Shown: positions 5,926-30,987, numbered from the stretch's first letter. The stretch: 32,000 nucleotides of DNA from Acaryochloris thomasi RCC1774 (GCF_003231495.1 NZ_PQWO01000004.1:150001-182000); one strand, 5' to 3'. Notes: generated by a model not told the origin, from the letters alone. Program-made: numbers and translations.

Positions 5926-6381
5926 ATGGTGCAACAACTCTTGCATTTTTGGCAGACCGTACTCGGGGTGATTTTCCGGCATCCGGTTATTGGCGTTAGT
6001 ATCATTCCCATTCTTGATGATGGCCGCATTATTCTCGTCAAGCGCCGCGATAATCAGCAATGGAGCTTCCCCGGTGGCTTTGTCGATTGGGGCGAAACCC
6101 TCGCTGAGACAGTGCATCGAGAGCTAGAAGAAGAGACGGGGCTGCGCGTAAAGCAAATGGGCCGCCTTGTGGGTGTCTATTCAGCTCCTGACCGTGATTC
6201 TCGCCTCCACTCTATCTGTGTCGCCATTGAGGCCCAAGTCGAAGGTGACTATCGCGTTCAGGAAGCTGAAATTCTAGAAATTCAAGCCTTTCTTCCTGAT
6301 GATGTCGCCCAGGAGAAGCTGAGTCACGATCACGATCGCCAGTTTCAGGATTACCGGCAAGGTAAAACGGCGCTGGCTTGA
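5926..6381 (+). CDS. NUDIX hydrolase
   Basis: The Nudix box GGFVDWGETLAETVHRELEEETGL matches G-x5-E-x7-REUxEExGU. Confidence 0.85.
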   Translation: MVQQLLHFWQTVLGVIFRHPVIGVSIIPILDDGRIILVKRRDNQQWSFPGGFVDWGETLAETVHRELEEETGLRVKQMGRLVGVYSAPDRDSRLHSICVAIEAQVEGDYRVQEAEILEIQAFLPDDVAQEKLSHDHDRQFQDYRQGKTALA

Positions 6382-6498
6382 TCTGCGACTCTACGCAAAG
6401 GCATTAAACGCGAGTATGATATTCCTTTGCCAACCGCTAGAGATCTCGTGCAGACCATGATCAATGTAGGGCGCTTACTTTTAAGGCCGTGGACCGGG

Positions 6499-8121
6499 AT
6501 GCAGCGGTTCGTTGTACTGCTCTGTGTGTCGCTTTTACTGGTGGTAAGCTGTGGTCCTAAACCCTCTGCCGATGGGCCATCAGCGGTTAATAACGGTGAC
6601 TTTATTACCATCGGCACGACCTCGAAATTACGAACGCTAGATCCGGCTGATGCCTACGATATCTTCTCCGGTATTTTGCTTAACAACATGGGGGAACGGC
6701 TGTATACCTACGAGCTAGGGTCAACAAAGCTGGTACCTCAGTTAGCGACCGCTTTACCCGAAGTGAGTGAAGACGGCTTGACCTACATAATTCCCCTGCG
6801 AGAAGGCGTACAGTTCCATGACGGGACGCCCTTCAACGCGAAGGCAATGGCTTTTTCTCTGCGACGCTTCATTGAGAATGGCGGCCAGCCGTCGTTCTTA
6901 TTGGCAGATGCCATTGAGTCGGTGAAGCCCACGGCAGAATATGAACTGACCATTGAGCTAAAGCAGCCCTTCTCAGCCCTGCCGGCCCTCCTAAGCTTCT
7001 TCGGAGCCTGCGCCGTTTCGCCGAAGGCCTACGATGTCGGCCCTGGTAAATTTGCCCCCGATACCTTTGTGGGGACGGGACCATACAAGCTTGCCCGGTA
7101 CGGCCCCGATCTGCTGCAGCTCCAAGCCTTTGATCAGTACTGGGGCGAAAAACCGGCCAACCCCGGCGTCAGTATTCAACTGCTCACCGATGCGCCCAAT
7201 CTATTCAATGCTTTTCAGACCGGGGCGGTGGATGTCGCCTATCAAAACCTAGAGCCAGAACAGGTGCAGAATCTGCGGCAAGATGCAGATAAGTCGGGCT
7301 GGAAGGTGATTGAAGCCCAGGGCACAGGCGTCACGTATTTGGTCCTGAATCTCAAGCAGGAACCACTCGATAATGTGGCGGTACGGCGCGCCATTGCAGC
7401 CATTGTGGACCGACCGCTGATTAACAAGCGGGTCTATCAGGGGCAGGCAGAACCGATTTATAGCCTCTTGCCTACGGCTTTTGAGAGCTACTCACCCGTC
7501 TTCAAAGAATCCTATGGTGATGGCAATGCCGAAGTGGCGCAGAAGTATCTCGATGAAGCCGGATACTCCACTGAAAATCCGCTGAGGCTGGAGCTGTGGT
7601 ATCCGTCGAACTCTGTGCCCCGAAGTCTGATTGCCAGTCTGCTGAAGGCGTTTGCAAAAGATAAGCTTGATGGCGCTGTGGAGTTAGAAATTAATAGCGT
7701 CGATTCTGCTACCGCGTTCCAAAACGTGAGTAAAGGAATTTATCCGTCGCTGCTGGTGACCTGGTTCCCTGACTTTTTTGATCCTGACACCTATATTCAG
7801 CCCTTTTTATCCTGCTTGAAGGGATCGCAGGAAGAGGGGTGTGAAGAAGGCGCAAGTCAGTCTCAGGGGTCGTTTTACTACAGTGATGATGCTAATGCCT
7901 TGGTGAAACAGCAGCGGCGCACCCTCGATCCTGAGAAGCGACAGGCGATTTTCGGTGAGCTGCAGGAAATCTTAGCGGATGATGTTCCCTATATTCCGCT
8001 GGTGCAGAGTAAAGAATATGCCTTTGCCCAGCAAAATATTGAGGGTGTGCAAATCAGCCCCACACAGCAGTTCCCGTTCTGGACCCTTCAGCGAGATACC
8101 GCTCAGGCTCAGGAAAATTAG
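6499..8121 (+). CDS. ABC transporter substrate-binding lipoprotein, family 5 (peptide/nickel/opine type)
   Basis: Length and motifs (TLDPA..., FHDGTPFNA, GTGPYKL...) fit SBP family 5. The ORF opens at 6427, but the ATG at 6499 gives a lipoprotein signal MQRFVVLLCVSLLLVVSCG (lipobox LVVSC). Confidence 0.85.
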   Translation: MQRFVVLLCVSLLLVVSCGPKPSADGPSAVNNGDFITIGTTSKLRTLDPADAYDIFSGILLNNMGERLYTYELGSTKLVPQLATALPEVSEDGLTYIIPLREGVQFHDGTPFNAKAMAFSLRRFIENGGQPSFLLADAIESVKPTAEYELTIELKQPFSALPALLSFFGACAVSPKAYDVGPGKFAPDTFVGTGPYKLARYGPDLLQLQAFDQYWGEKPANPGVSIQLLTDAPNLFNAFQTGAVDVAYQNLEPEQVQNLRQDADKSGWKVIEAQGTGVTYLVLNLKQEPLDNVAVRRAIAAIVDRPLINKRVYQGQAEPIYSLLPTAFESYSPVFKESYGDGNAEVAQKYLDEAGYSTENPLRLELWYPSNSVPRSLIASLLKAFAKDKLDGAVELEINSVDSATAFQNVSKGIYPSLLVTWFPDFFDPDTYIQPFLSCLKGSQEEGCEEGASQSQGSFYYSDDANALVKQQRRTLDPEKRQAIFGELQEILADDVPYIPLVQSKEYAFAQQNIEGVQISPTQQFPFWTLQRDTAQAQEN

Positions 8122-8266
8122 CTATCCTTTTCCAAAGGTTGTAGGAAAAGTCTGATGGTTAATGGCTGAGCGTTGAGATCACGATCAATCATCCTTAAGG
8201 CGTCACGCTGTACAGATTAGAGATGAGAGCTAACGCTACAATCGTCGAACAGCCAGAACAAATACT

Positions 8267-9319
8267 ATGGTTTTAAGTCGATATCGCACTCTTTTCTTGG
8301 CCTTGCTGGGCTTGGTACTGGTGATCACGCTCGGTATCTGGACTTCCTCCGCGGAGGAACCCTGTAGCTATGATCCTGCAGCCTATCGAGGACTGGAACT
8401 GTCTCGATTGACAACGGAGCTAGAAGGCACTGGAATGGTGGGCCGTATGCATGGGGCAGCAGCAGACGCTAATTTATTTGTGCTGTCGGTGCGTGACCCT
8501 GACAGCTTTTTTAAGCACCGTGAGTTCTCGCTGTTGGCTCGTGATGACCAGACTCGAAAAAAACTCGGCCAGTTGAATCGGCACGATCAGATTTGTGTGC
8601 AGGGTCGTTTGCTTGATAATCCAAGCCCGCAAAAGCATGTCGAGCTGAAGTCGGTTCAGGTCTTAGACCACTGGGCAGGTTTGGACGCGTTTCCTGAATA
8701 TGAACATACCGTCGATCTGCCAGAGGAGCTGAAGTCTCAGTCGAGTTTTGTGGGTAAAGTCCACGCAATCGGGGCTGAGGGCACAATTTTGGTGATGGAA
8801 TACAAGGATGGGGTGCTGCCGATTTTTGTCCAGGCACCGGACCTCACGAAGAATCTCTATCGAGGTGATATTGTACGTTTGGCTTATAAGATTCAACAGT
8901 GGCCGCAGCAGCCTACCCATCTGCAGCTTAATGCTGAGGCGGAGCAGCCGATGGAAGTGTTAGATGCGATCGCATCTCTCCACAACCAACCTAAAACCTA
9001 CTCCGGCAAGCTGGTGAAGTTTCCGCAAAGCCCGCAGCTTAATTTCGATGTCTACGCCATTGAAGTTGAAACCCAAGGGATCAACCGAACCTTCACGCTC
9101 GTCAATTTTGAGAACCCAGAGGAATTCAAGAACATTCGAGATAAGCTAGCAGAGATCTGGGATAGCCATACCGAAACCATCACTACCGGGCGCAATATGT
9201 TGATTAACCCAGAAGTCATTGTGGAAGCCACGGGCAATATCAACGTTGTCTCTACGGAGCAGGCCAATCCTCAAATCTTACTGAAAACGACTGCAGACTT
9301 TGAGATGCAGGCATCCTAG
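8267..9319 (+). CDS. Hypothetical protein with N-terminal signal/anchor
   Basis: 350-aa ORF with an N-terminal hydrophobic segment (LFLALLGLVLVITLGIW). No competing ORF and no family recognised. Confidence 0.6.
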   Translation: MVLSRYRTLFLALLGLVLVITLGIWTSSAEEPCSYDPAAYRGLELSRLTTELEGTGMVGRMHGAAADANLFVLSVRDPDSFFKHREFSLLARDDQTRKKLGQLNRHDQICVQGRLLDNPSPQKHVELKSVQVLDHWAGLDAFPEYEHTVDLPEELKSQSSFVGKVHAIGAEGTILVMEYKDGVLPIFVQAPDLTKNLYRGDIVRLAYKIQQWPQQPTHLQLNAEAEQPMEVLDAIASLHNQPKTYSGKLVKFPQSPQLNFDVYAIEVETQGINRTFTLVNFENPEEFKNIRDKLAEIWDSHTETITTGRNMLINPEVIVEATGNINVVSTEQANPQILLKTTADFEMQAS

Positions 9320-18634: not shown

Positions 18635-19735
18635 CTATGCGGGGGCAATACCCTGCTGCAGGTGACGACGCACGGCTGCTTTTTCGAGTAAGCCGACGAG
18701 GGCACCGCTTTCTTTAACCACCGCTAGCACCTGCATTTTTTCTTGATCAAACAGCGTCACGATATCGAGCAAGGATTGACTGTCCTGAACCACCTTGGGT
18801 AGTTCTGCGGTGGGGGACAGAATTTCCTGAACCGGGACTTGAGGCCATTGAGAGGTGGGGACAGTTTTCAATTGCTCTAGATCAACCAAGCCGACTAACT
18901 GGCCCTGTTCATCAGTGACTAGAAATTCTTTGACTTTGCCCTGGAAAGGAATGGCTTGATTGGCAAGCTGACGAAGGGAGTCGTTGCGGCCAATCACAAG
19001 GTGGCCTTCTGCGACCACGTCAGCGACGGTGTACTTGCTCAGAGCCTCCTGAACTTTGGACGACTGAAGCGCGCGACCGGCGTTCTGCAACAGGAACCAG
19101 CCAATTAACAAATTCCAGAAGCTGATGGTAACGACACCGGAGATCATGGCGACGTAGGCCACAACTTGTCCGGCGCGAGCTGCAACTCGGATGCCGCGAT
19201 AGCGATTGCCGGTAAACTTCCAGACTGCAGCTTTAAGGACATTACCGCCATCGAGCGGTAGGCCAGGAATCATGTTGAAGAGCGCTAGGTATAGATTGAC
19301 CGTCGCTAATAGTCCGATGACGGCGGCGATTGGGCCAGAGATGGGGAGGGCGAGACCGGCGAAGTTGAGTAAGCCCCACAGTGCGATGCTGACGGCTGGA
19401 CCTGCGATCGCAACTGCAAATGCTTCCAGCGGAGTCTTGGACTCTTCTTCTAAACTGGCGAGTCCCCCAAACAGAAACAGCGTAATCGACTTCACCTCAA
19501 TACCCTGTTGCATGGCAACAAGACTGTGGCCTAACTCGTGGGCCAGCACCGAACCAAACAGCAATACGGCAGCACCCAGACCCAAGGCCCACGGCGCAAC
19601 ACCCGTTAACGCTGGGAATTGAGAAGCGAGGCCGTTGCCGTAGCTCCAGGTCACCAACAGCAGCACGAGAAACCATGATGCATTGAGGTAAAAGGGGATG
19701 CCAAACAGGCTACCCAACCGAAAATTACCGTTCAT
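18635..19735 (-). CDS. Site-2 protease family (M50) zinc metalloprotease with C-terminal CBS pair
   Basis: Motifs HELGHS and NMIPGLPLDGG, several TMs, and two CBS-like repeats at the C-terminus. The track start at 19741 is TTG. The ATG at 19735 sits 8 nt after an AGGAG Shine-Dalgarno. Confidence 0.85.
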   Translation of the reverse strand: MNGNFRLGSLFGIPFYLNASWFLVLLLVTWSYGNGLASQFPALTGVAPWALGLGAAVLLFGSVLAHELGHSLVAMQQGIEVKSITLFLFGGLASLEEESKTPLEAFAVAIAGPAVSIALWGLLNFAGLALPISGPIAAVIGLLATVNLYLALFNMIPGLPLDGGNVLKAAVWKFTGNRYRGIRVAARAGQVVAYVAMISGVVTISFWNLLIGWFLLQNAGRALQSSKVQEALSKYTVADVVAEGHLVIGRNDSLRQLANQAIPFQGKVKEFLVTDEQGQLVGLVDLEQLKTVPTSQWPQVPVQEILSPTAELPKVVQDSQSLLDIVTLFDQEKMQVLAVVKESGALVGLLEKAAVRRHLQQGIAPA

Positions 19736-19909
19736 TATCAAAACTCCTGATCGTTCTAGGAGTCACAGCTGCGGGCTAAAAACCTAACGGCAATCTGAAC
19801 TCCTTGCTCACAATTGTAACGAAACATGAACAACAGCCTGCTCGTACTAACCGAACTTGCGCAGGTCGGTTTCCCAATGAAGGCAGAATACTGAAAAGGG
19901 CGATCCGCC

Positions 19910-21899: not shown

Positions 21900-21952
21900 G
21901 AGCGCATCAACCGTATTTCTTGGGTAAAGCGGAGCTGAGCGTGTCTAAGTCT

Positions 21953-23143
21953 ATGAAGATTGGCGAACTGGCCCAACAGGTCGGACTCTCCATTCGCACA
22001 CTGCACTACTACGACGAAATTGGTCTGCTCTCCCCCTCAGATCGAACGGAGGCAGGGCATCGACTTTATCGCGATCACGATATCATCCGGCTGCAGAAAG
22101 TCATTTCGCTGCAGCAGTTAGGCTTTGCGCTCAAAGAGATCCGTGAGTGTTTGGAGAATCCTGACTTTGCGCTGCCGCAGGTGATTAATCTGCATCGGGC
22201 GCGGCTGCGAGAGCAGATGGCCTTGTCGCGGACTTTGTTGGATCGACTGGATGCGATCGCAACCCAGCTCCAAACGACCCAATCGATTGCGGTTGAGAAC
22301 CTAATTCAAGCAATGGAGACGATTACTATGACGACACAATATTTCACCCCAGAACAGCAAGCCATTCTAGAGGCACGATTCGAGAAACGGGCAGTAGAGT
22401 GGCAAGATCTGCTAACCGAAATCCGAGCTGAGATGAATAGGGGCACAGAGGTCAACGATCCGAATGTGCAGCGCTTGGCTGGAGCTTGGCGCGCAAATAT
22501 GGCCTCCCTGATTCATGGCGATCGCCAAATTTACGAATCGTTTGTCAAGATGTATCAGCACGAGGGATCTGAGACGGCAGGCATAGGAGCATTAGATAAC
22601 GACACGTTTGAGTACATCTCGAAGGCCGTTTCTTTCCTTTCCCTCGCGGAAGACATGGATTTTGTGGTCACGTTTAAGCGCTTCAATGTAGAGGCCAATC
22701 AAGTTATTGCTGTGGGGCAACAGGCTATCCGTGAGCTGAACTTCAATTTCTTTGGCACCGAAGGCATGCTGCTCGGATTGCTGGCCGAAGGTAAGAGCGT
22801 GGCGGCTCAAGTGCTCATGGATGCGGGCGTCAGCTTTGGTACAACTCAGCAGGTGATCCAAGAATGGCTGGCATCTTCAGCGATTCTGCCTGAAGATATG
22901 CCTGAGCAATTGGGGTTTGCCCCCAGAGCCTACCGAGTGATGGAGCTAGCCCTCGAAGCCTTGAACCAAAGTGCGGCTCAACAACCTGCAGGGCCAGTCC
23001 GCGCCAATCCGGGGCACTTGCTGCTGGGCATTTTGCTCGAAGCTCAGGAAGGTGGCGGCGTCGCCAGCAAGATCCTGACAGATGTATTTGGCCTTGATCT
23101 GATTCAGCTTGAGCAGCAGCTTAGAACGGCGATGGTGCGGTAA
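21953..23143 (+). CDS. MerR-family regulator with TipAS-like central domain fused to a C-terminal double Clp_N (ClpA/B/C N-terminal) repeat
   Basis: The MerR HTH is MKIGELAQQVGLSIRTLHYYDEIGLL...GHRLY. The TipAS-like segment is FTPEQQAILEARF...W..L..EI...M. The C-terminal FKRFNVEANQVIAVGQQAIRELNFNFFGTEGMLLGLLAEGKSVAAQVLMDAGV...FAPRAYRVMELALEA...PGHLLLGILLEAQEGGGVASKILTDVFGLD aligns with both Clp_N repeats of ClpC. The frame is continuous with no stop. The track start at 21920 is TTG; the ATG at 21953 is preferred. Confidence 0.8.
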   Translation: MKIGELAQQVGLSIRTLHYYDEIGLLSPSDRTEAGHRLYRDHDIIRLQKVISLQQLGFALKEIRECLENPDFALPQVINLHRARLREQMALSRTLLDRLDAIATQLQTTQSIAVENLIQAMETITMTTQYFTPEQQAILEARFEKRAVEWQDLLTEIRAEMNRGTEVNDPNVQRLAGAWRANMASLIHGDRQIYESFVKMYQHEGSETAGIGALDNDTFEYISKAVSFLSLAEDMDFVVTFKRFNVEANQVIAVGQQAIRELNFNFFGTEGMLLGLLAEGKSVAAQVLMDAGVSFGTTQQVIQEWLASSAILPEDMPEQLGFAPRAYRVMELALEALNQSAAQQPAGPVRANPGHLLLGILLEAQEGGGVASKILTDVFGLDLIQLEQQLRTAMVR

Positions 23144-23318: not shown

Positions 23319-23654
23319 ATGTTTGTGATTAGATTCGGTGGGACAGCGATGCTGTTGCTATCTTTCTGGGCTGTTCCACCTTCAGCATTTTCCACACCTG
23401 TTCAGCCTCAGTTGGGCCAGCATCGGAATCGGCACAAGCTTTACATGCAGCGTCATAATCAGCGCAGGCTGCAGCAACAGCTGAATCGGCACCGCCAGAT
23501 TCGCAACAGACAGCAACAGCAAATCCGGCTTAACCTTGAGCAGCAGCGAGAACGATCGCAACAAAGGCTGCGGGTTCTAAAAAAAGAAAATCGACGGCAG
23601 TCCAAGCAAGATTTAGAACGACTGCAGAGAAGGCTGGGAACAAGTTCACCATAG
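23319..23654 (+). CDS. Hypothetical secreted, extremely Q/R-rich basic protein
   Basis: 111-aa ORF with signal-like MFVIRFGGTAMLLLSFWAVPPSAFS, then roughly 85 aa dominated by Q, R, N and L (QQQLNRHRQIRNRQQQQIRLNLEQQRERSQQRLR). The low complexity makes coding status uncertain. Confidence 0.35.
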   Translation: MFVIRFGGTAMLLLSFWAVPPSAFSTPVQPQLGQHRNRHKLYMQRHNQRRLQQQLNRHRQIRNRQQQQIRLNLEQQRERSQQRLRVLKKENRRQSKQDLERLQRRLGTSSP

Positions 23655-25193: not shown

Positions 25194-26021
25194 TTAATCC
25201 TGAGAACGCAGATGTTTGCCGTCATTTTTTAGCAGTAGCTCATCAGTGCAGCAGGGTAATAAAGGTTGATTCGCAATTTCATCAAGTTGGGCTTGCTTTA
25301 GTAAGTCAGCCCACGCTGTCTTCACTTGCGCATTTTTGGGGTACGTCTGACGAAGTTGAGCTAGAGTTGCGATCGCATCATGCCAAAGCCCATATTGAGC
25401 ATAGATCGCGACCTTTTCTAGCTCCGTTGCCTGTCCGATAGGCTCCTTGAGGCTGCTTGCTAGGGGCACGCGATAGATGGTGCCCTGTACAAACATCGTG
25501 GGATGACGAGGCGTAGCGGCAACAGCCAAAGTCCAGGTATAGCGCTTGTCGAACGCCAGCGCAGGCATCGACTCGGGTAAGCCAATTTGGACCAACCCCT
25601 GCGAAAACGAGGAAGGGAGCGTAAAGTTTGCTCTGTGGATGTAGCGATCATGCTCATCCTGAAGAACGAATTCAACAGGAGCAGACTCTAGCTCCGGCAT
25701 CATAAACCAGAGCACCGGGCGCTCCGCAGTTGTCAATCCCCAAACAAACTTTTCTTGATTGGGCCCCGTGGTTGCGGGTACCAGTGCCATTAATGGATAC
25801 ACGGACGGCAGGGCGCTCCCCCCGCGACTGGATCCACCTTTCTGACGCCCCTGGGGCGCTCTAGGATCTTTCGGAGGTGTCGGCAGAACCAACCGGAAGG
25901 CCGAGGAGCGATCGAGCGAAATCACGCTCTGAGCCTGTAAGCGGCTTGGCCAGGCCGCAGAACCGGCGACTAGCAGGCTGCCCGCTGCTAAACAATAAAT
26001 CAAGGACTGAGTGCGTTTCAT
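25194..26021 (-). CDS. Secreted DUF928 domain protein
   Basis: Signal peptide MKRTQSLIYCLAAGSLLVAGSAAWPSRLQAQS. It continues PPKDPRAPQGRQKGGSSRGG, LMALVP, GLTTAERPVLWFMMP, VEFVLQDE, KRYTWTLAV, VAIYAQYGLWHDAIATLAQL, the DUF928 pattern as I recall it. Its ATG overlaps the upstream stop (ATGA at 26018-26021). Confidence 0.75.
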   Translation of the reverse strand: MKRTQSLIYCLAAGSLLVAGSAAWPSRLQAQSVISLDRSSAFRLVLPTPPKDPRAPQGRQKGGSSRGGSALPSVYPLMALVPATTGPNQEKFVWGLTTAERPVLWFMMPELESAPVEFVLQDEHDRYIHRANFTLPSSFSQGLVQIGLPESMPALAFDKRYTWTLAVAATPRHPTMFVQGTIYRVPLASSLKEPIGQATELEKVAIYAQYGLWHDAIATLAQLRQTYPKNAQVKTAWADLLKQAQLDEIANQPLLPCCTDELLLKNDGKHLRSQD

Positions 26022-28387
26022 GGTTCAAGTTCCTTACGAGCAGGATAGTTTAGAGAGCGGACATAGGCAACGCTCAAGATCGTTGCGAGGCAGGCGAGTA
26101 TGCTAGGAATCAAAGGTAGCCATAGGCCCTGAATCAATAAGACAGCACAGCTTCCCGTGAGCCCCCCCCATATCGCAATTCCAGCGATCGCCATTGGCTT
26201 AGAAATAGACCATCGCCAAGCCCAAGCGCCCCCAACGGCGGACCAACAGAAGACCCAAATCGCATCTCCCCAGAGAGGCCATGCCCACAGGGAAGGGCGC
26301 TGATCTAAAGCGGCACTGAGAAGCTGACTCGTCATCTGAGCCTGAATAAAGACCCCCGGAACCTTGCGACCGGTCCCATAAGGGGTTGCCCAATCATCAT
26401 TACTGCTGCTGGCCGCAACGCCAATCAGAACAATCCGGTCTTTGATACGGCTGGGATCAATTTGTTCTTCCAGCACCTGGGTCAAAGTGACCTGGGGAGC
26501 AATATTCTGGGGTGATTTCAGGGCTCGGTAATTCAGCGGAATTTGAATGCCGTGCGTATCCACTGTTTGATAACCGCCCGTATGGGGTCGCAGGGTCGGC
26601 AATGTGACAGCTCCCAGTTTCAACTGATTCTGGGCGGTAAAAGTCGGCTGAATCTTCAAGTGCGAAAGATAGTGAAAGGCAAGCAAAGAGCTAAAGGCAT
26701 GAGGGGTTTTGCAGGGTGACGCAGGCTCAGGGGTCAAATACAAAAGCTGCCGCCGCAGAACGCCATCTGGATCGGCAATAAAATCGCTGAACCCCATCCG
26801 GTCCATTGAAATTTCTGGTGGTGGCGCAATGCCTGTGGGATCACTGCTGGTATCTAGGTTTTTACAAACGCCCACTAAGCCTTGAGTTTCCTGAAGCTGC
26901 TTGCTCAGACGGGGCTGATCGGGGCGTACCGGAAAGTCTCGATAAACATCAAGACCGATAACGCGAGGCTGAGCGGGTGCTAGTTTTGCAAGTAGCTGGC
27001 TCAAGGTGGCATCTGAGAGGGAGCTACGGCGAGAGTCTTCTTTCTGGGCCTGAATCTCGGCCTCTGAGACGGTGATCACCAGTAGACGAGAGTCGGGGGC
27101 CTCTAGGGGACGGAGCTGAAGCAGCCGATCTAAAGCCCACAGCTCGGGAAACTGCAGCCAGCCCACCCAGCGTCCAGCAAGAACCAAGACTGTCATCAGG
27201 AGGCTGACTTGAAGCACTGAGAGGCAGGACTGACGCCGGCGCGATGGGCGCGAGCGAGAAGTGGCGGCCTGCGTTGTGGGCAAGGCAATCGGCGCATCCG
27301 CCTGCACCTGAGATGAAAGCTCTAGCCAAGTGGGGGGAACCACCGCTGGATTTTGACAAATAACAGGTAGCCAAGTGGCGCAGGGATAAGTTTGCTCTAG
27401 GCCCTGTAATCGCTCCCGTGCTTCTCGCATGGCGAGATAAAGGGCGGTGCCCTTGGCGTAGCTCTGCAGGAAATACTTCAAAAATTCTTGGGCAACGGCA
27501 TCAGGCACGGGTTCGCGCATCACAATCAGCTGCGGGATCTGCAGATCAGCTAATGCTCTGCCCAGACCGAGGCCATCGCAGGAGTTCAAGATTGCGAGCT
27601 GGAGGCCTTTACCCACCGCCTTCTTCAGAGCATAGCGGAGATCCTCGATTTCTAAACGCTCTTCTGCATTGAGGCAGAGCGTGCCTGAGGTTGCACCTTG
27701 ACTGCAGCTATGACCTGCGAAAAATAGAATATCCCAGCGCTGCTCCCATAGCTGTTCGTTAAGCTGATGCCGATTGGGTTCGTCTAAGAAATAAATGTGC
27801 GCGTTAGGTAGCTGCTCTAATAGGGCTTGGTCAGCGCTGACATCAATACCGTTGCTGTTGCCCAAAATCGCAAGAATACGAACGTCCCCAGGTGAATGGG
27901 ACCGAAGGGGTGGATTGGCATAGGTGGGGGCCGCTAGGGCAATTTCGGTCAACGGGTAGCGCTCTAAGAGATCCCATGTATGCCAGGGTAATTTCTGGAG
28001 CTGTAGGTCGTCGGTCTGTAGGAGGATGCGGATGCGATCGCAAGGTGACAGTTGCTCTAGCAGCTTCTCTCTAATGGGCCGAAAGACGGCAACGCAAAGC
28101 CAGTCATTCATCGATCGACGAAGCACTGCCGCCGCCTGCAGACAGTCCTTTAGGCGAGAAACATTTGTAACCTGGTCAGTCACAGGCTCAATACGGGATG
28201 GTACCCCTAGCTGCCAGTAAACAGATTGCCAAGCTTGATAGTGCTGGCGCAGGTGTTCTGCAGGGGGTAGAGAGCCTGCTATTTCTGTAGAGGGACGACA
28301 TCCCTCAAGGCCCACCTGCAAGGTGAGCATAAAGCCTTCCTCAAAGCTGCCCTGCTCAAATTTTAGAACAACAAATTGATCGGCCAT
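26018..28387 (-). CDS. Membrane protein: N-terminal conserved module + CHAT (caspase-like Cys protease) domain, TM, periplasmic CHASE2 domain, three C-terminal TMs
   Basis: The CHAT core is RILAILGNS...WDILFFAGHS (His codon 27710-27712) ...LQLAILNSCDG (Cys codon 27578-27580). The basic stretch RSRPSRRRQ and TM1 (SVLQVSLLMTVLVLAG) follow. CHASE2-like elements are RLLVITVSE, VIGLDVYRDFP, FSDFIADPDGVLRR and RIVLIGVAA. Three TMs lead to a C-terminus only ~13 aa after the last one. The track start at 28399 is TTG; the ATG at 28387 is preceded by GGGGG. Confidence 0.85.
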   Translation of the reverse strand: MADQFVVLKFEQGSFEEGFMLTLQVGLEGCRPSTEIAGSLPPAEHLRQHYQAWQSVYWQLGVPSRIEPVTDQVTNVSRLKDCLQAAAVLRRSMNDWLCVAVFRPIREKLLEQLSPCDRIRILLQTDDLQLQKLPWHTWDLLERYPLTEIALAAPTYANPPLRSHSPGDVRILAILGNSNGIDVSADQALLEQLPNAHIYFLDEPNRHQLNEQLWEQRWDILFFAGHSCSQGATSGTLCLNAEERLEIEDLRYALKKAVGKGLQLAILNSCDGLGLGRALADLQIPQLIVMREPVPDAVAQEFLKYFLQSYAKGTALYLAMREARERLQGLEQTYPCATWLPVICQNPAVVPPTWLELSSQVQADAPIALPTTQAATSRSRPSRRRQSCLSVLQVSLLMTVLVLAGRWVGWLQFPELWALDRLLQLRPLEAPDSRLLVITVSEAEIQAQKEDSRRSSLSDATLSQLLAKLAPAQPRVIGLDVYRDFPVRPDQPRLSKQLQETQGLVGVCKNLDTSSDPTGIAPPPEISMDRMGFSDFIADPDGVLRRQLLYLTPEPASPCKTPHAFSSLLAFHYLSHLKIQPTFTAQNQLKLGAVTLPTLRPHTGGYQTVDTHGIQIPLNYRALKSPQNIAPQVTLTQVLEEQIDPSRIKDRIVLIGVAASSSNDDWATPYGTGRKVPGVFIQAQMTSQLLSAALDQRPSLWAWPLWGDAIWVFCWSAVGGAWAWRWSISKPMAIAGIAIWGGLTGSCAVLLIQGLWLPLIPSILACLATILSVAYVRSLNYPARKELEP

Positions 28388-28404
28388 TGCTGCCCCCAAT
28401 GGCG

Positions 28405-29343
28405 CTAGATAACAAACTGCTCCGTCACTGAGAAATCTCCCAGCATCACCTTGAGACTAAACCGCTCGCCTCGATGGCCGCTAAACTGAAGTTGAATATA
28501 GTCATCCGCACTCCTAGACCGGGCTTCCAAAACCGGCTCAGCCCCTTCGTCAAACACCACTAGCTGCAGATCAGCCGGAAGGTGGGCATCACTGGCCAAG
28601 GGATGAACCTGAACACAAAATAGGCGCTGATCTTGTCCAGGCTTGCAGTCCAGCACCAAGACCACCGGCGCTTGATTGGGCTTTAAAGAGAGCAGCTTTG
28701 CCCGCTGCACCTGCCCTTCGACAATCTGGACATCCATCGTTTCCGCCCGCCTAAAGCTCAGCGCCGGTTGAGATTGGCATAAAAGAGCATCAGCGGGTTG
28801 CCAGCCATCGGCAAAAAGGCCGCTAAACCAAAGTTCTAGCTGAGTCCAGGGCGATTTTATAGCAGGTGGGTTTAAGCTAAACTCGCTCAAATGAGCCAGC
28901 AAAGACTCCAGTGGCCTCAGTTGACCGAGCGGCAGATGTTCTGCAGCAACAGTGGGCGTAAACCCCAGCAGCCTCGCCTGACGCAAGTTCTCTGAAATTT
29001 GAACCACCAAATACCCAATTCGGTCAACCCAAACCTCAGGGGGGAGGTAGCAGACGTCTTCGTGACCTTGGACAGGCCGACACTCTAAGCGTCCTGAGGC
29101 CGCGACCTCCAAATCAGCGACGTTGCTACAGGCCCGTACGACGGGATTCCAGCTATCACCGGCATCCAGATCGCAGGGAATACCCATCATTTGCAGGTAG
29201 TCGTGGGTCACCCACACGGCTAAGGTGTTAAGACAAACCTGTTGGGCCTTATCGGGTGTGGCCTGCTGAGCCGAAAACGCTGCAGCCATCTGACGAGCAG
29301 CTGTGGTAATTGGCAGGACAAGAGACTGATCTTCAACTTGCAT
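28405..29343 (-). CDS. DUF1822 family protein
   Basis: 312 aa, soluble. QQVCLNTLAVWVTHDYL, DSWNPVVR, VADLEV...GRLECRPV, LPPEVWVDRIGYLVVQI, LLGF, and a C-terminal LPADLQLVVFDEGAEP...IQLQFSGHRGERFSLKVML...TEQFVI match my recollection of the cyanobacterial DUF1822 consensus. Confidence 0.65.
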   Translation of the reverse strand: MQVEDQSLVLPITTAARQMAAAFSAQQATPDKAQQVCLNTLAVWVTHDYLQMMGIPCDLDAGDSWNPVVRACSNVADLEVAASGRLECRPVQGHEDVCYLPPEVWVDRIGYLVVQISENLRQARLLGFTPTVAAEHLPLGQLRPLESLLAHLSEFSLNPPAIKSPWTQLELWFSGLFADGWQPADALLCQSQPALSFRRAETMDVQIVEGQVQRAKLLSLKPNQAPVVLVLDCKPGQDQRLFCVQVHPLASDAHLPADLQLVVFDEGAEPVLEARSRSADDYIQLQFSGHRGERFSLKVMLGDFSVTEQFVI

Positions 29344-29367: not shown

Positions 29368-30087
29368 TTATAAATATCCTTGGCATTGCCCAAAGTTACG
29401 CAAGCGCGTGACACATTTTCTCTGATAGAAGCTACTCAAGGTAGAAACGGCAACACCAAACTCAGTCGACAGGTCTTCCCAGCTCGTTTCGGGCGGTAAA
29501 CGACGGAGGATCAGAGCCTGACAGTTGACTTCAGGTCGATTCTGGACGTGGGTACTGCGCAGTTCCCCAGTGGCATCTAGCTCAGCCCAAGTGCGAGTGT
29601 CTTCTAGAATGGGCGGTACATCAGGGCTAGACGGGAGATTTTCGGTTATATCTTTCTGGCTGTTCATGCTTCCCGGTGGGGGAGCATAGGCAAACTTTTT
29701 TTGCTGGGTTTGTTTAGCAATGCGAAAATCCTGCAGCCGCCATTTCAGATAGCGATTGAGCCAAGTAATGACGCTACTGCGGTCGGGATCGTACCGCTGT
29801 CCAGTCCCTGCCTCACAGATATTCTGGCAGAAATAGATCCACATCTGCTGCTTGGCATCTTCGTAAAAAGGTGTGTTTTCGTGCCAGAGCTTCTGTGATT
29901 GCTCAATCAGCCGAATAATTTGAGTCAGACATTGCTGACGTTTAAAGTGACCAGGCGAGTATCGACGAGCTTCAGCTACAAGGGAGCGGATTTCCTCCTC
30001 GATAGTCCTGCGTTGTTCTGTCAGTTGCATACCATCACCGTTAGACAATGAACCAGTTAGTTTAGAAGATTGCAGTGGGTGAGGCAT
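29368..30087 (-). CDS. Sigma-70 family (ECF-like, group 4-like) RNA polymerase sigma factor homologue
   Basis: The region-2-like segment is YEDAKQQMWIYFCQNI...YDPDRSSVITWLNRYLKWRLQDFR. The region-4-like HTH is CQALILRRLPPETSWEDLSTEFGVAVSTLSSFYQRKCVTRLRNF. A linker of ~60 aa separates them. An alternative ATG lies at 30030. Confidence 0.7.
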   Translation of the reverse strand: MPHPLQSSKLTGSLSNGDGMQLTEQRRTIEEEIRSLVAEARRYSPGHFKRQQCLTQIIRLIEQSQKLWHENTPFYEDAKQQMWIYFCQNICEAGTGQRYDPDRSSVITWLNRYLKWRLQDFRIAKQTQQKKFAYAPPPGSMNSQKDITENLPSSPDVPPILEDTRTWAELDATGELRSTHVQNRPEVNCQALILRRLPPETSWEDLSTEFGVAVSTLSSFYQRKCVTRLRNFGQCQGYL

Positions 30088-30399: not shown

Positions 30400-30987
30400 A
30401 TGACACAGGATCAAATGACTCCCCCTACGGGGCCAGAAGACGTTGGCGATAGTCGATTAAGAAATCTTCTCATCGCTTTATCGGCTGCTGTGTTGGCGGT
30501 GGTGCTGTTTTTTGGCGTACGTGGTCAAACCCAAAGCCCATCGCTTACGGCTCTAGCGACAGCCTCTGTTCCCCTGGATACTGCGCTCGCCAACGGTCAG
30601 CCGACGCTGCTAGAATTTTACGCCGACTGGTGTACAAGCTGTCAGGCCATGGCTGCTGATATGGCAGCACTAAAGCAGCAGTATCAGGAGGTGAACTTTG
30701 TCATGCTTAACGTTGACAATACTAAGTGGCTTCCTGAGATTTCACGGTTCGGGGTCGATGGCATCCCACACTTTGTCTTTATCAATCGCTCAGGCGAGGC
30801 CTTAGCCAACGCAATTGGACAGCAGCCGCGAACAATCATGGCGGGCGACTTGACGGCCCTAGCGGCAGGTCAGGCACTACCGGAGCAGCAGCTTTCAGGC
30901 CAGGTTTCGATGTTCACTGCTGAGACCCAGCCTCGCGGGTCTGACGATCCTCGCAGCCACGGCGGACGCCCTGCTGGCGCACTGTGA
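30400..30987 (+). CDS. txlA: Thioredoxin-like membrane-anchored protein TxlA (thiol:disulfide interchange)
   Basis: N-terminal TM (LLIALSAAVLAVVLFFGV), then a thioredoxin fold with LLEFYADWCTSCQAM (CxxC) and GIPHFVFI. Confidence 0.8.
   Translation: MTQDQMTPPTGPEDVGDSRLRNLLIALSAAVLAVVLFFGVRGQTQSPSLTALATASVPLDTALANGQPTLLEFYADWCTSCQAMAADMAALKQQYQEVNFVMLNVDNTKWLPEISRFGVDGIPHFVFINRSGEALANAIGQQPRTIMAGDLTALAAGQALPEQQLSGQVSMFTAETQPRGSDDPRSHGGRPAGAL

Follow-up and report, generated by a model that had tools for sequence, protein, structure and literature searches.

A CHASE2-linked EACC2-CHAT protease, its secreted DUF928 partner and a putative route to sigma-factor control in Acaryochloris thomasi

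We describe here a four-gene operon from Acaryochloris thomasi RCC1774, located in a stretch of 32,000 nucleotides (GCF_003231495.1, NZ_PQWO01000004.1:150001-182000; hereafter the window, with positions counted from its first letter). Its central gene (26018..28387, minus strand) encodes a membrane protein of 789 amino acids, read from the ATG at 28387, in which an N-terminal EACC2-CHAT module with an intact and conserved His/Cys dyad is joined to a CHASE2 sensor domain. The next gene encodes a secreted DUF928 protein, and genes of this family accompany CHASE2 whatever the output to which the sensor is coupled. On the minus strand the four genes follow one another head to tail, in the order sigma-like, DUF1822, CHAT-CHASE2 and DUF928; the first two are separated by 24 nucleotides and the second and third by 17, and the start of the DUF928 gene overlaps the CHAT-CHASE2 stop by 4. 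The locus may be read as a signalling cassette of two modules. The input module would consist of secreted DUF928 and the CHASE2 ectodomain together with the four helices that anchor it in the membrane, and the output module of an EACC2-CHAT cysteine protease on a flexible tether to the first transmembrane helix (TM1), together with DUF1822 and a divergent extracytoplasmic function (ECF)-like sigma factor. We propose, at slightly less than even odds (roughly 0.45), that a cue sensed by DUF928 and CHASE2 activates the tethered CHAT domain by proximity, and that the protease then acts on DUF1822 to bring about control through the ECF-like sigma factor.

The architecture of the CHAT-CHASE2 protein is not new: it has appeared in catalogues from 2010-2012 onwards, and in 2021 it was placed among EACC2 systems. 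Rather than a new kind of sensor, the protein is an unremarkable representative of a large cyanobacterial family described by computation. New here are the conservation of the four-gene operon, the strict pairing of DUF928 with CHASE2 across output types, the argument that the protease is flexibly tethered, and an invariant Phe-Arg pair in a loop of DUF1822. An initial annotation of the window had drawn attention to a CHASE2 protein whose only catalytic output is an N-terminal CHAT protease; this observation is confirmed, and the interpretation placed upon it is partly supported. To our knowledge, CHASE2 has neither a known ligand nor a known mechanism more than 20 years after the domain was defined, and CHAT proteases outside CRISPR and separase are largely uncharacterised. 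The cassette is abundant in cyanobacteria and offers several handles: a secreted protein shared with the CHASE2-cyclases, a soluble candidate substrate in DUF1822, and a candidate sigma factor.

Architecture and family of the CHAT-CHASE2 protein

The open minus-strand frame spans 26018..28399, and an alternative TTG start four codons upstream of the ATG is possible. Pfam recognises CHAT (PF12770, clan CD, caspase-haemoglobinase fold) at residues 97-339 with 67.2 bits against a cutoff of 24, and CHASE2 (PF05226) at residues 399-720 with 206.5 bits (cutoff 26.3). Modelled with AlphaFold2 from 41 full-length homologues (mean predicted local distance difference test score, pLDDT, 82.6), the protein divides into an N-terminal alpha+beta module (~1-155), a caspase-like CHAT core (~169-345), a disordered linker (355-382), TM1 (383-408), the CHASE2 ectodomain (~409-700), three further transmembrane (TM) helices within 705-780, and a short tail. 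Within the linker, the model leaves residues 361-381 without ordered structure. The N-terminal module is composed of three strands (3-40), helices (44-112) and two strands (118-152). The alpha/beta core of the caspase fold begins near residue 169, whereas the Pfam CHAT envelope starts already at 97. Residues 5-165 had been suggested to form a recurrent cyanobacterial module; the recurrence is real, and the module corresponds to EACC2, although the boundaries given were only approximate.

The catalytic-type residues lie where they were first assigned, each following a beta-strand of the model. His226 (codon CAT, 27710..27712, minus strand) belongs to the motif ILFFAGHS, which begins at residue 220, and follows strand 220-224; Cys270 (codon TGC, 27578..27580, minus strand) belongs to LAILNSCDG, beginning at residue 264, and follows strand 264-268. 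Both residues are invariant in all 41 aligned homologues. Among 239 retrieved relatives the His motif is found in 237 and both motifs in 236, mostly 43-45 residues apart. The spacing of 44 residues in the present protein compares with 43 in Csx29 (H615/C658, PMC10028731) and 47 in SAVED-CHAT (H375/C422, bioRxiv 10.1101/2023.06.23.546230). Furthermore, when the model was compared with the PDB by Foldseek, the matches were to separase (9hn5, 1.6e-8), SAVED-CHAT (8tl0, 2e-8) and DdvA (8rot, 1.6e-6), with weaker matches to procaspase-3, legumain and a metacaspase. Conservation and the predicted fold thus support the assignment of an N-terminal CHAT protease domain with an intact His/Cys dyad.

This domain is the sole catalytic-type domain of the protein, and the C-terminal output domain of canonical CHASE2 receptors is absent. 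The initial annotation was right that the chain ends without such a domain, but placed the end about 13 residues after the last TM helix where the model gives 9; across the 41 homologues the tail measures 3-29 residues. One TM helix precedes the ectodomain and three follow it (705-725, 729-752 and 759-780), an arrangement with which hydropathy agrees. The predicted topology places the N-terminus inside, CHASE2 outside and CHAT in the cytoplasm, as had been proposed. Four Lys or Arg residues cluster before TM1, where the basic run RSRPSRRRQ opens at residue 378; the TM2-TM3 loop and the tail contain two each, and the TM3-TM4 loop has none. The orientation fits both this charge distribution and the secreted nature of the DUF928 partner.

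The full-length protein has abundant relatives. Each of the 120 best matches listed in a full-length homologue search carries both CHASE2 and CHAT, and most are 770-830 residues long. With the reading frame continuous and two-domain homologues so plentiful, an origin of the architecture in a gene merge or sequencing frameshift is excluded. A scan of one genome per species recovered at least 598 loci encoding relatives, of which 80 were retained, essentially all of them cyanobacterial. The combination of CHAT with CHASE2 is hence widespread rather than rare, and its description as unusual does not survive this census or the published record. Calothrix PCC 7103 and Moorena producens 3L each possess two such loci. 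A search with the N-terminal 358 residues alone reached further, to 1,575 representatives of 50%-identity clusters at E <= 1e-30. CHASE2 is present in 56 of the best 150 of these representatives (~37%), and other ends found on the same N-terminal module include PsbP, tetratricopeptide repeats (TPR), pentapeptide repeats, DUF8082 and EAD4.

Earlier surveys had met this architecture on three occasions. Jiang et al. 2010 (PMC2853523) listed a Trichodesmium metacaspase fused to CHASE2, and Asplund-Samuelsson et al. 2012 (PMC3501461) described an N-terminal caspase-type domain followed by one TM helix, CHASE2 and three TM helices, with the protease free in the cytoplasm. The Trichodesmium erythraeum protein of these reports shares the topology described here, and its protease, too, is predicted to lie in the cytoplasm; the protein was presented as an isolated oddity with a Peptidase_C14 label, and is likened to EACC2-CHAT by its topology. 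Kaur et al. 2021 (PMC8195603) defined a constant N-terminal module comprising a new alpha+beta domain, EACC2, and a caspase domain. Its variable C-terminus may be CHASE2 with TM helices, and an ECF sigma factor and DUF1822 are encoded nearby; sensing was proposed to lead to autopeptidase activation and a sigma-mediated response. The present protein matches that description in its N-terminal alpha+beta and caspase module, in its variable CHASE2/TM end and in its DUF1822 neighbour. The account of Kaur et al. runs to a few sentences without experiments and leaves DUF928 unmentioned, and no counterpart of the TRADD-N partner of EACC2-caspase systems was seen among the operon genes here.

DUF928 and the CHASE2 sensor module

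The DUF928 gene (25194..26021, minus strand) encodes 275 residues with an N-terminal Sec-type signal peptide, a feature that occurs throughout the DUF928 family. The initial annotation did not weigh this gene, which is the most tightly linked partner: in 64 (89%) of the 72 related loci with enough flanking sequence, it lies downstream and on the same strand. Counts of neighbours among related loci, here and below, refer to the 80 retained loci.

In the reciprocal direction, a metagenome scan seeded with DUF928 recovered at least 528 loci, of which 80 were kept (L086-L165), 33 of them with at least 2.6 kb on both sides. A CHASE2 gene adjoins DUF928 in 32 of these 33 fully flanked loci; in 21 the neighbour is EACC2-CHAT-CHASE2 and in 11 it is without CHAT. 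Ten CHAT-less CHASE2 neighbours from these loci were checked with Pfam, and each proved to be a canonical CHASE2-(PAS)-adenylate/guanylate cyclase whose output follows the last TM helix. Conversely, DUF928 is absent from all four of the EACC2-CHAT relatives without CHASE2 that were checked. DUF928 tracks CHASE2 whatever the output; if the CHASE2 ectodomain has a periplasmic co-receptor or a partner that presents its ligand, DUF928 is therefore the best candidate. Beyond one incidental mention, we found no description of this pairing in the open-access literature searched.

Canonical CHASE2 receptors, in which the domain is coupled to cyclase, kinase or GGDEF outputs, were reportedly described by Zhulin et al. 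in 2003 (cited in PMC8195603). They share with the present protein the ectodomain family, the frame of one TM helix before and three after, and a set of invariant residues; the cyanobacterial CHASE2-cyclases share the DUF928 neighbour as well. In canonical receptors, however, the output is C-terminal to TM4, whereas here it is N-terminal to TM1 and only the short tail follows the last helix. About 25 invariant CHASE2 residues are common to the CHAT type and to the DUF928-linked cyclase type, including E415, D420, D480, D539, R545/R546, Q615, N619-R621, D664 and S687/Q688. CHAT-type ectodomains possess in addition an invariant Cys508/Cys559 pair that is absent from the DUF928-linked cyclase type. 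These cysteines lie next to low-confidence loops of the model and may form a periplasmic disulfide.

After the signal peptide, DUF928 proteins possess a conserved Pro-rich stretch, a GGRxxGGAxRGxC motif and two near-invariant cysteines. The copy in the window is without both of these cysteines, that of the RGxC motif and a later one; such a joint loss would fit a disulfide pair. The CHASE2 ectodomain is modelled as mixed alpha/beta, and a Foldseek search of the full model against the PDB matched no solved structure to the CHASE2 part. Weak matches in the same search, at E 2.5e-3 to 0.2, were to the folds of AnmK/ASKHA sugar kinases, of NTPDase and of RNase H, and may stem from the ectodomain. 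Profile searches of PDB sequences with CHAT-CHASE2, the sigma-like protein, DUF1822 and DUF928 gave nothing significant.

Signal transfer, candidate substrate and alternative readings

The linker between CHAT and TM1 has a pLDDT below 50, a mean column identity of 0.19 and a composition rich in Pro, Ser and Thr, and varies from 11 to 81 residues in length among the 41 homologues. In two relatives (P0127 and P0233) it accommodates a whole cyclase-homology domain (CHAT 97-340, cyclase 377-543, CHASE2 618-942). The resulting order in these two proteins is EACC2-CHAT-cyclase-TM-CHASE2-3TM, which places both cytoplasmic domains N-terminal to the sensor. The locus L082, in which P0127 is encoded at 6001-9054, possesses the same sigma-like, DUF1822, DUF928 and thioredoxin neighbours as the window.

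It had been argued that the signal must run backwards through TM1 to the protease. Rigid conformational coupling of this kind is unlikely, because the linker is predicted to be disordered, is unconserved and variable in length, and sometimes holds a cyclase-homology domain; control by induced proximity or oligomerisation fits better. Class III cyclases, which are carried by the same sensor, have to form dimers. SAVED-CHAT becomes active when it assembles into filaments, and in DdvA the active sites of the CHAT domains point towards the interface of the dimer (PMC11506125). Together, these three precedents support activation of the CHAT domain by proximity.

Upstream of the protease gene, the DUF1822 gene (28405..29343, minus strand; Pfam DUF1822, 237 bits) encodes a soluble protein of 312 residues in which no TM segment was found. 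DUF1822 lies upstream in 54 of 77 related loci. It also occurs near two of the four variants checked that have no CHASE2: in L081 it is the adjacent gene, and in L085, which has a sigma-like frame as well, it lies ~3 kb upstream. DUF1822, and less tightly the sigma factor, thus appear to travel with the protease module, a pattern seen on fewer loci than that of DUF928. A structural model (pLDDT 84.5) opens with helices, which are followed by a beta domain and, at the C-terminus, by a beta-sandwich; Kaur et al. (PMC8195603) call DUF1822 a TPR protein, whereas this model shows no TPR, and we reject that assignment. Between the two halves is a variable, gap-rich loop of low pLDDT (~191-211), near the start of which Phe197-Arg198 is invariant. 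Separase and metacaspases cut after Arg, and an exposed invariant Arg is what would be expected at the site of a clan CD protease. We hypothesise that Phe197-Arg198 may be a cleavage site for the CHAT protease because clan CD enzymes such as these have this preference.

The first gene of the operon (29368..30087, minus strand; 239 residues) encodes a divergent ECF-like sigma factor candidate. Weak Sigma70_r2 matches were found in 4 of 19 homologues (best 1e-3) and Sigma70_r4_2 in one of the 19 (8e-5), and in an hhalign comparison the C-terminal helix-turn-helix (HTH) of the family profile aligned with region 4 of Escherichia coli RpoE at E 0.0018, with a low probability of 15%. Kaur et al. also name the neighbouring gene an ECF sigma (PMC8195603). 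Judged by these sequence comparisons, the protein is likely to be an ECF-like sigma factor.

From these components a sequence of events can be envisaged. An extracytoplasmic cue sensed by CHASE2 with DUF928 would change the association of receptors, bringing the tethered CHAT domains together and activating them in the manner of initiator caspases and of the filaments of SAVED-CHAT. Once active, the protease would cut DUF1822, most plausibly at Phe197-Arg198, and this cut would free or activate the sigma factor and so change transcription.

Several observations weigh against this proposal. The Phe197-Arg198 pair could equally be a docking or structural element. No anti-sigma fold was detected in DUF1822, for which Foldseek returned only generic Ig-like beta-sandwich matches (E >= 1.5e-3), and its profile matched no PDB sequence. 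The sigma-like protein of the window has no Pfam match below E 0.01, and PDB ECF sigma factors matched the sigma-like profile only at E ~0.7-0.8. Nor need the output be the sigma factor of the operon: a sigma-like gene is adjacent in only 16 of 72 related loci and within 6 kb in 23 of 72 (22-32%). Counts of k-mers in 17 regions upstream of sigma-like genes revealed no ECF-type promoter motif, only the HIP1 palindrome and scattered AACTT words, and sigma-70 and terminator scans of such regions were at chance level. Finally, the literature searched turned up no experimental study of any family member.

The linker is also central to the first of three other explanations. Following Kaur et al. 2021, sensing by the variable C-terminus may cause CHAT to cleave itself, probably within the linker ahead of TM1, and so release EACC2-CHAT for action in the cytoplasm or on the sigma pathway. 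Such a release has been proposed for EACC2 systems (PMC8195603), DdvA has likewise been proposed to cleave itself in trans (PMC11506125), and the exposed, disordered segment 355-382 would be accessible to a protease. The same segment is, however, without a conserved residue or motif, and a sequence-specific self-cleavage site within it is unlikely because the linker is unconserved and ranges so widely in length. We regard release by autoproteolysis as unlikely to be the way in which this protein works.

Alternatively, the cassette may serve in conflict or cell death, with a surface cue (phage, toxin or kin signal) activating the protease to degrade many proteins, and DUF1822 and the sigma factor acting as accessory regulators. 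The protease module stays constant while the sensor end varies greatly, a pattern that resembles the diversification of immune receptors, and some genomes possess more than one copy. Kaur et al. group EACC2 with apoptosis-like systems (PMC8195603), and a model of this kind has been drawn in a review for CHASE2-linked orthocaspases (PMC7475262). Against this, the models of PADLOC-DB 2.0 match none of CHAT-CHASE2, DUF928 and DUF1822, and the sigma-like protein has only a marginal RT_IX match (E 0.0057). The surroundings of the operon in the window are ordinary chromosomal housekeeping genes and not a defence island, and the operon itself encodes neither a toxin nor a nuclease. Moreover, the occurrence of DUF928-CHASE2 with plain cyclase outputs points to ordinary signalling. 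The near-absence of PADLOC matches and the housekeeping neighbourhood lower our estimate of a role in immunity, which we consider improbable. That CHASE2 and its helices merely anchor a protease which is constitutive or regulated from the cytoplasm, with no signal crossing the membrane, is very unlikely: the flexible, unconserved linker cannot relay a rigid conformational signal and many relatives join the same protease module to soluble C-terminal domains, but the ectodomain keeps the invariant residues of cyclase-coupled CHASE2 sensors, and the retention of a secreted DUF928 in most loci is hard to explain for a passive anchor.

Relation to known systems and genomic surroundings

The proposed cascade from DUF928 and CHASE2 through a proximity-activated CHAT protease to DUF1822 and a sigma factor has parallels in systems that place CHAT domains in sigma-factor control. 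In Craspase, Cas7-11 acts with Csx29 (TPR-CHAT) to cleave Csx30, an inhibitor of the ECF-like CASP-sigma (PMC10028731). Both systems possess the CHAT His/Cys dyad with nearly the same spacing (43 and 44 residues), and both encode a protease, an inhibitor-type protein and a sigma factor together, the last two being candidates in the operon described here. The activator of Craspase is a target RNA in the cell, recognised through a guide CRISPR RNA (crRNA), whereas here it would presumably be a periplasmic cue acting via CHASE2; furthermore, no CRISPR genes lie near the operon, and DUF1822 has no detected similarity to Csx30. In a further case, SAVED-CHAT activates PCaspase, and the target that PCaspase cuts is a putative sigma factor (bioRxiv 10.1101/2023.06.23.546230).

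DdvA, a membrane anti-sigma factor with a CHAT domain, belongs to the DdvA-DdvS pair of Myxococcus xanthus (PMC11506125; PDB 8rot). It resembles the proposed system as a membrane protein that joins CHAT to ECF sigma control, and as a dimer with its active sites at the interface. The TPR-CHAT part of DdvA is nevertheless periplasmic with an incomplete active site, and its cytoplasmic end is a zinc anti-sigma domain. In the protein described here CHAT is predicted to be cytoplasmic with its dyad intact, CHASE2 is periplasmic and no anti-sigma domain was found. A recognisable anti-sigma or sigma-binding partner domain, as would be expected of a protease-gated sigma/anti-sigma switch such as DegS-RseA, Csx29-Csx30 or CalpL-CalpT, was not found in DUF1822.

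It is tempting to speculate further that DUF928 supplies cyanobacterial CHASE2 domains, whichever output they carry, with a long-missing periplasmic co-receptor or with a tethered ligand, and that EACC2-CHAT, DUF1822 and the sigma-like protein constitute a new pathway in which receptor clustering causes CHAT to cut DUF1822 after Arg198 and so places transcription under protease control. In this complete form the idea is tentative and, on balance, somewhat doubtful. If true, it would make the cassette an envelope-sensing counterpart of Craspase-Csx30, parallel to a cyclic AMP/cyclic GMP branch with the same sensor pair.

No second copy of any of the four genes lies within the 32-kb window. A divergent thioredoxin gene (30400-30987) was considered as a part of the system and rejected; among related loci it is adjacent only in the closest relative, that of P0127 (L082), and it lies ~3.7 kb downstream in one other (L017). 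About 6 kb from the operon is a Peptidase_M50 gene of the site-2 protease type (18635-19741, minus strand). A plus-strand gene at 21920-23143 encodes a protein of 407 residues with an unusual combination of domains, a MerR HTH being joined to a TipAS domain for antibiotic recognition and to a Clp_N repeat at the C-terminus, and a plus-strand frame of 111 residues (23319-23654) begins with a hydrophobic segment and continues into an extremely Gln/Arg-rich tail of low complexity.

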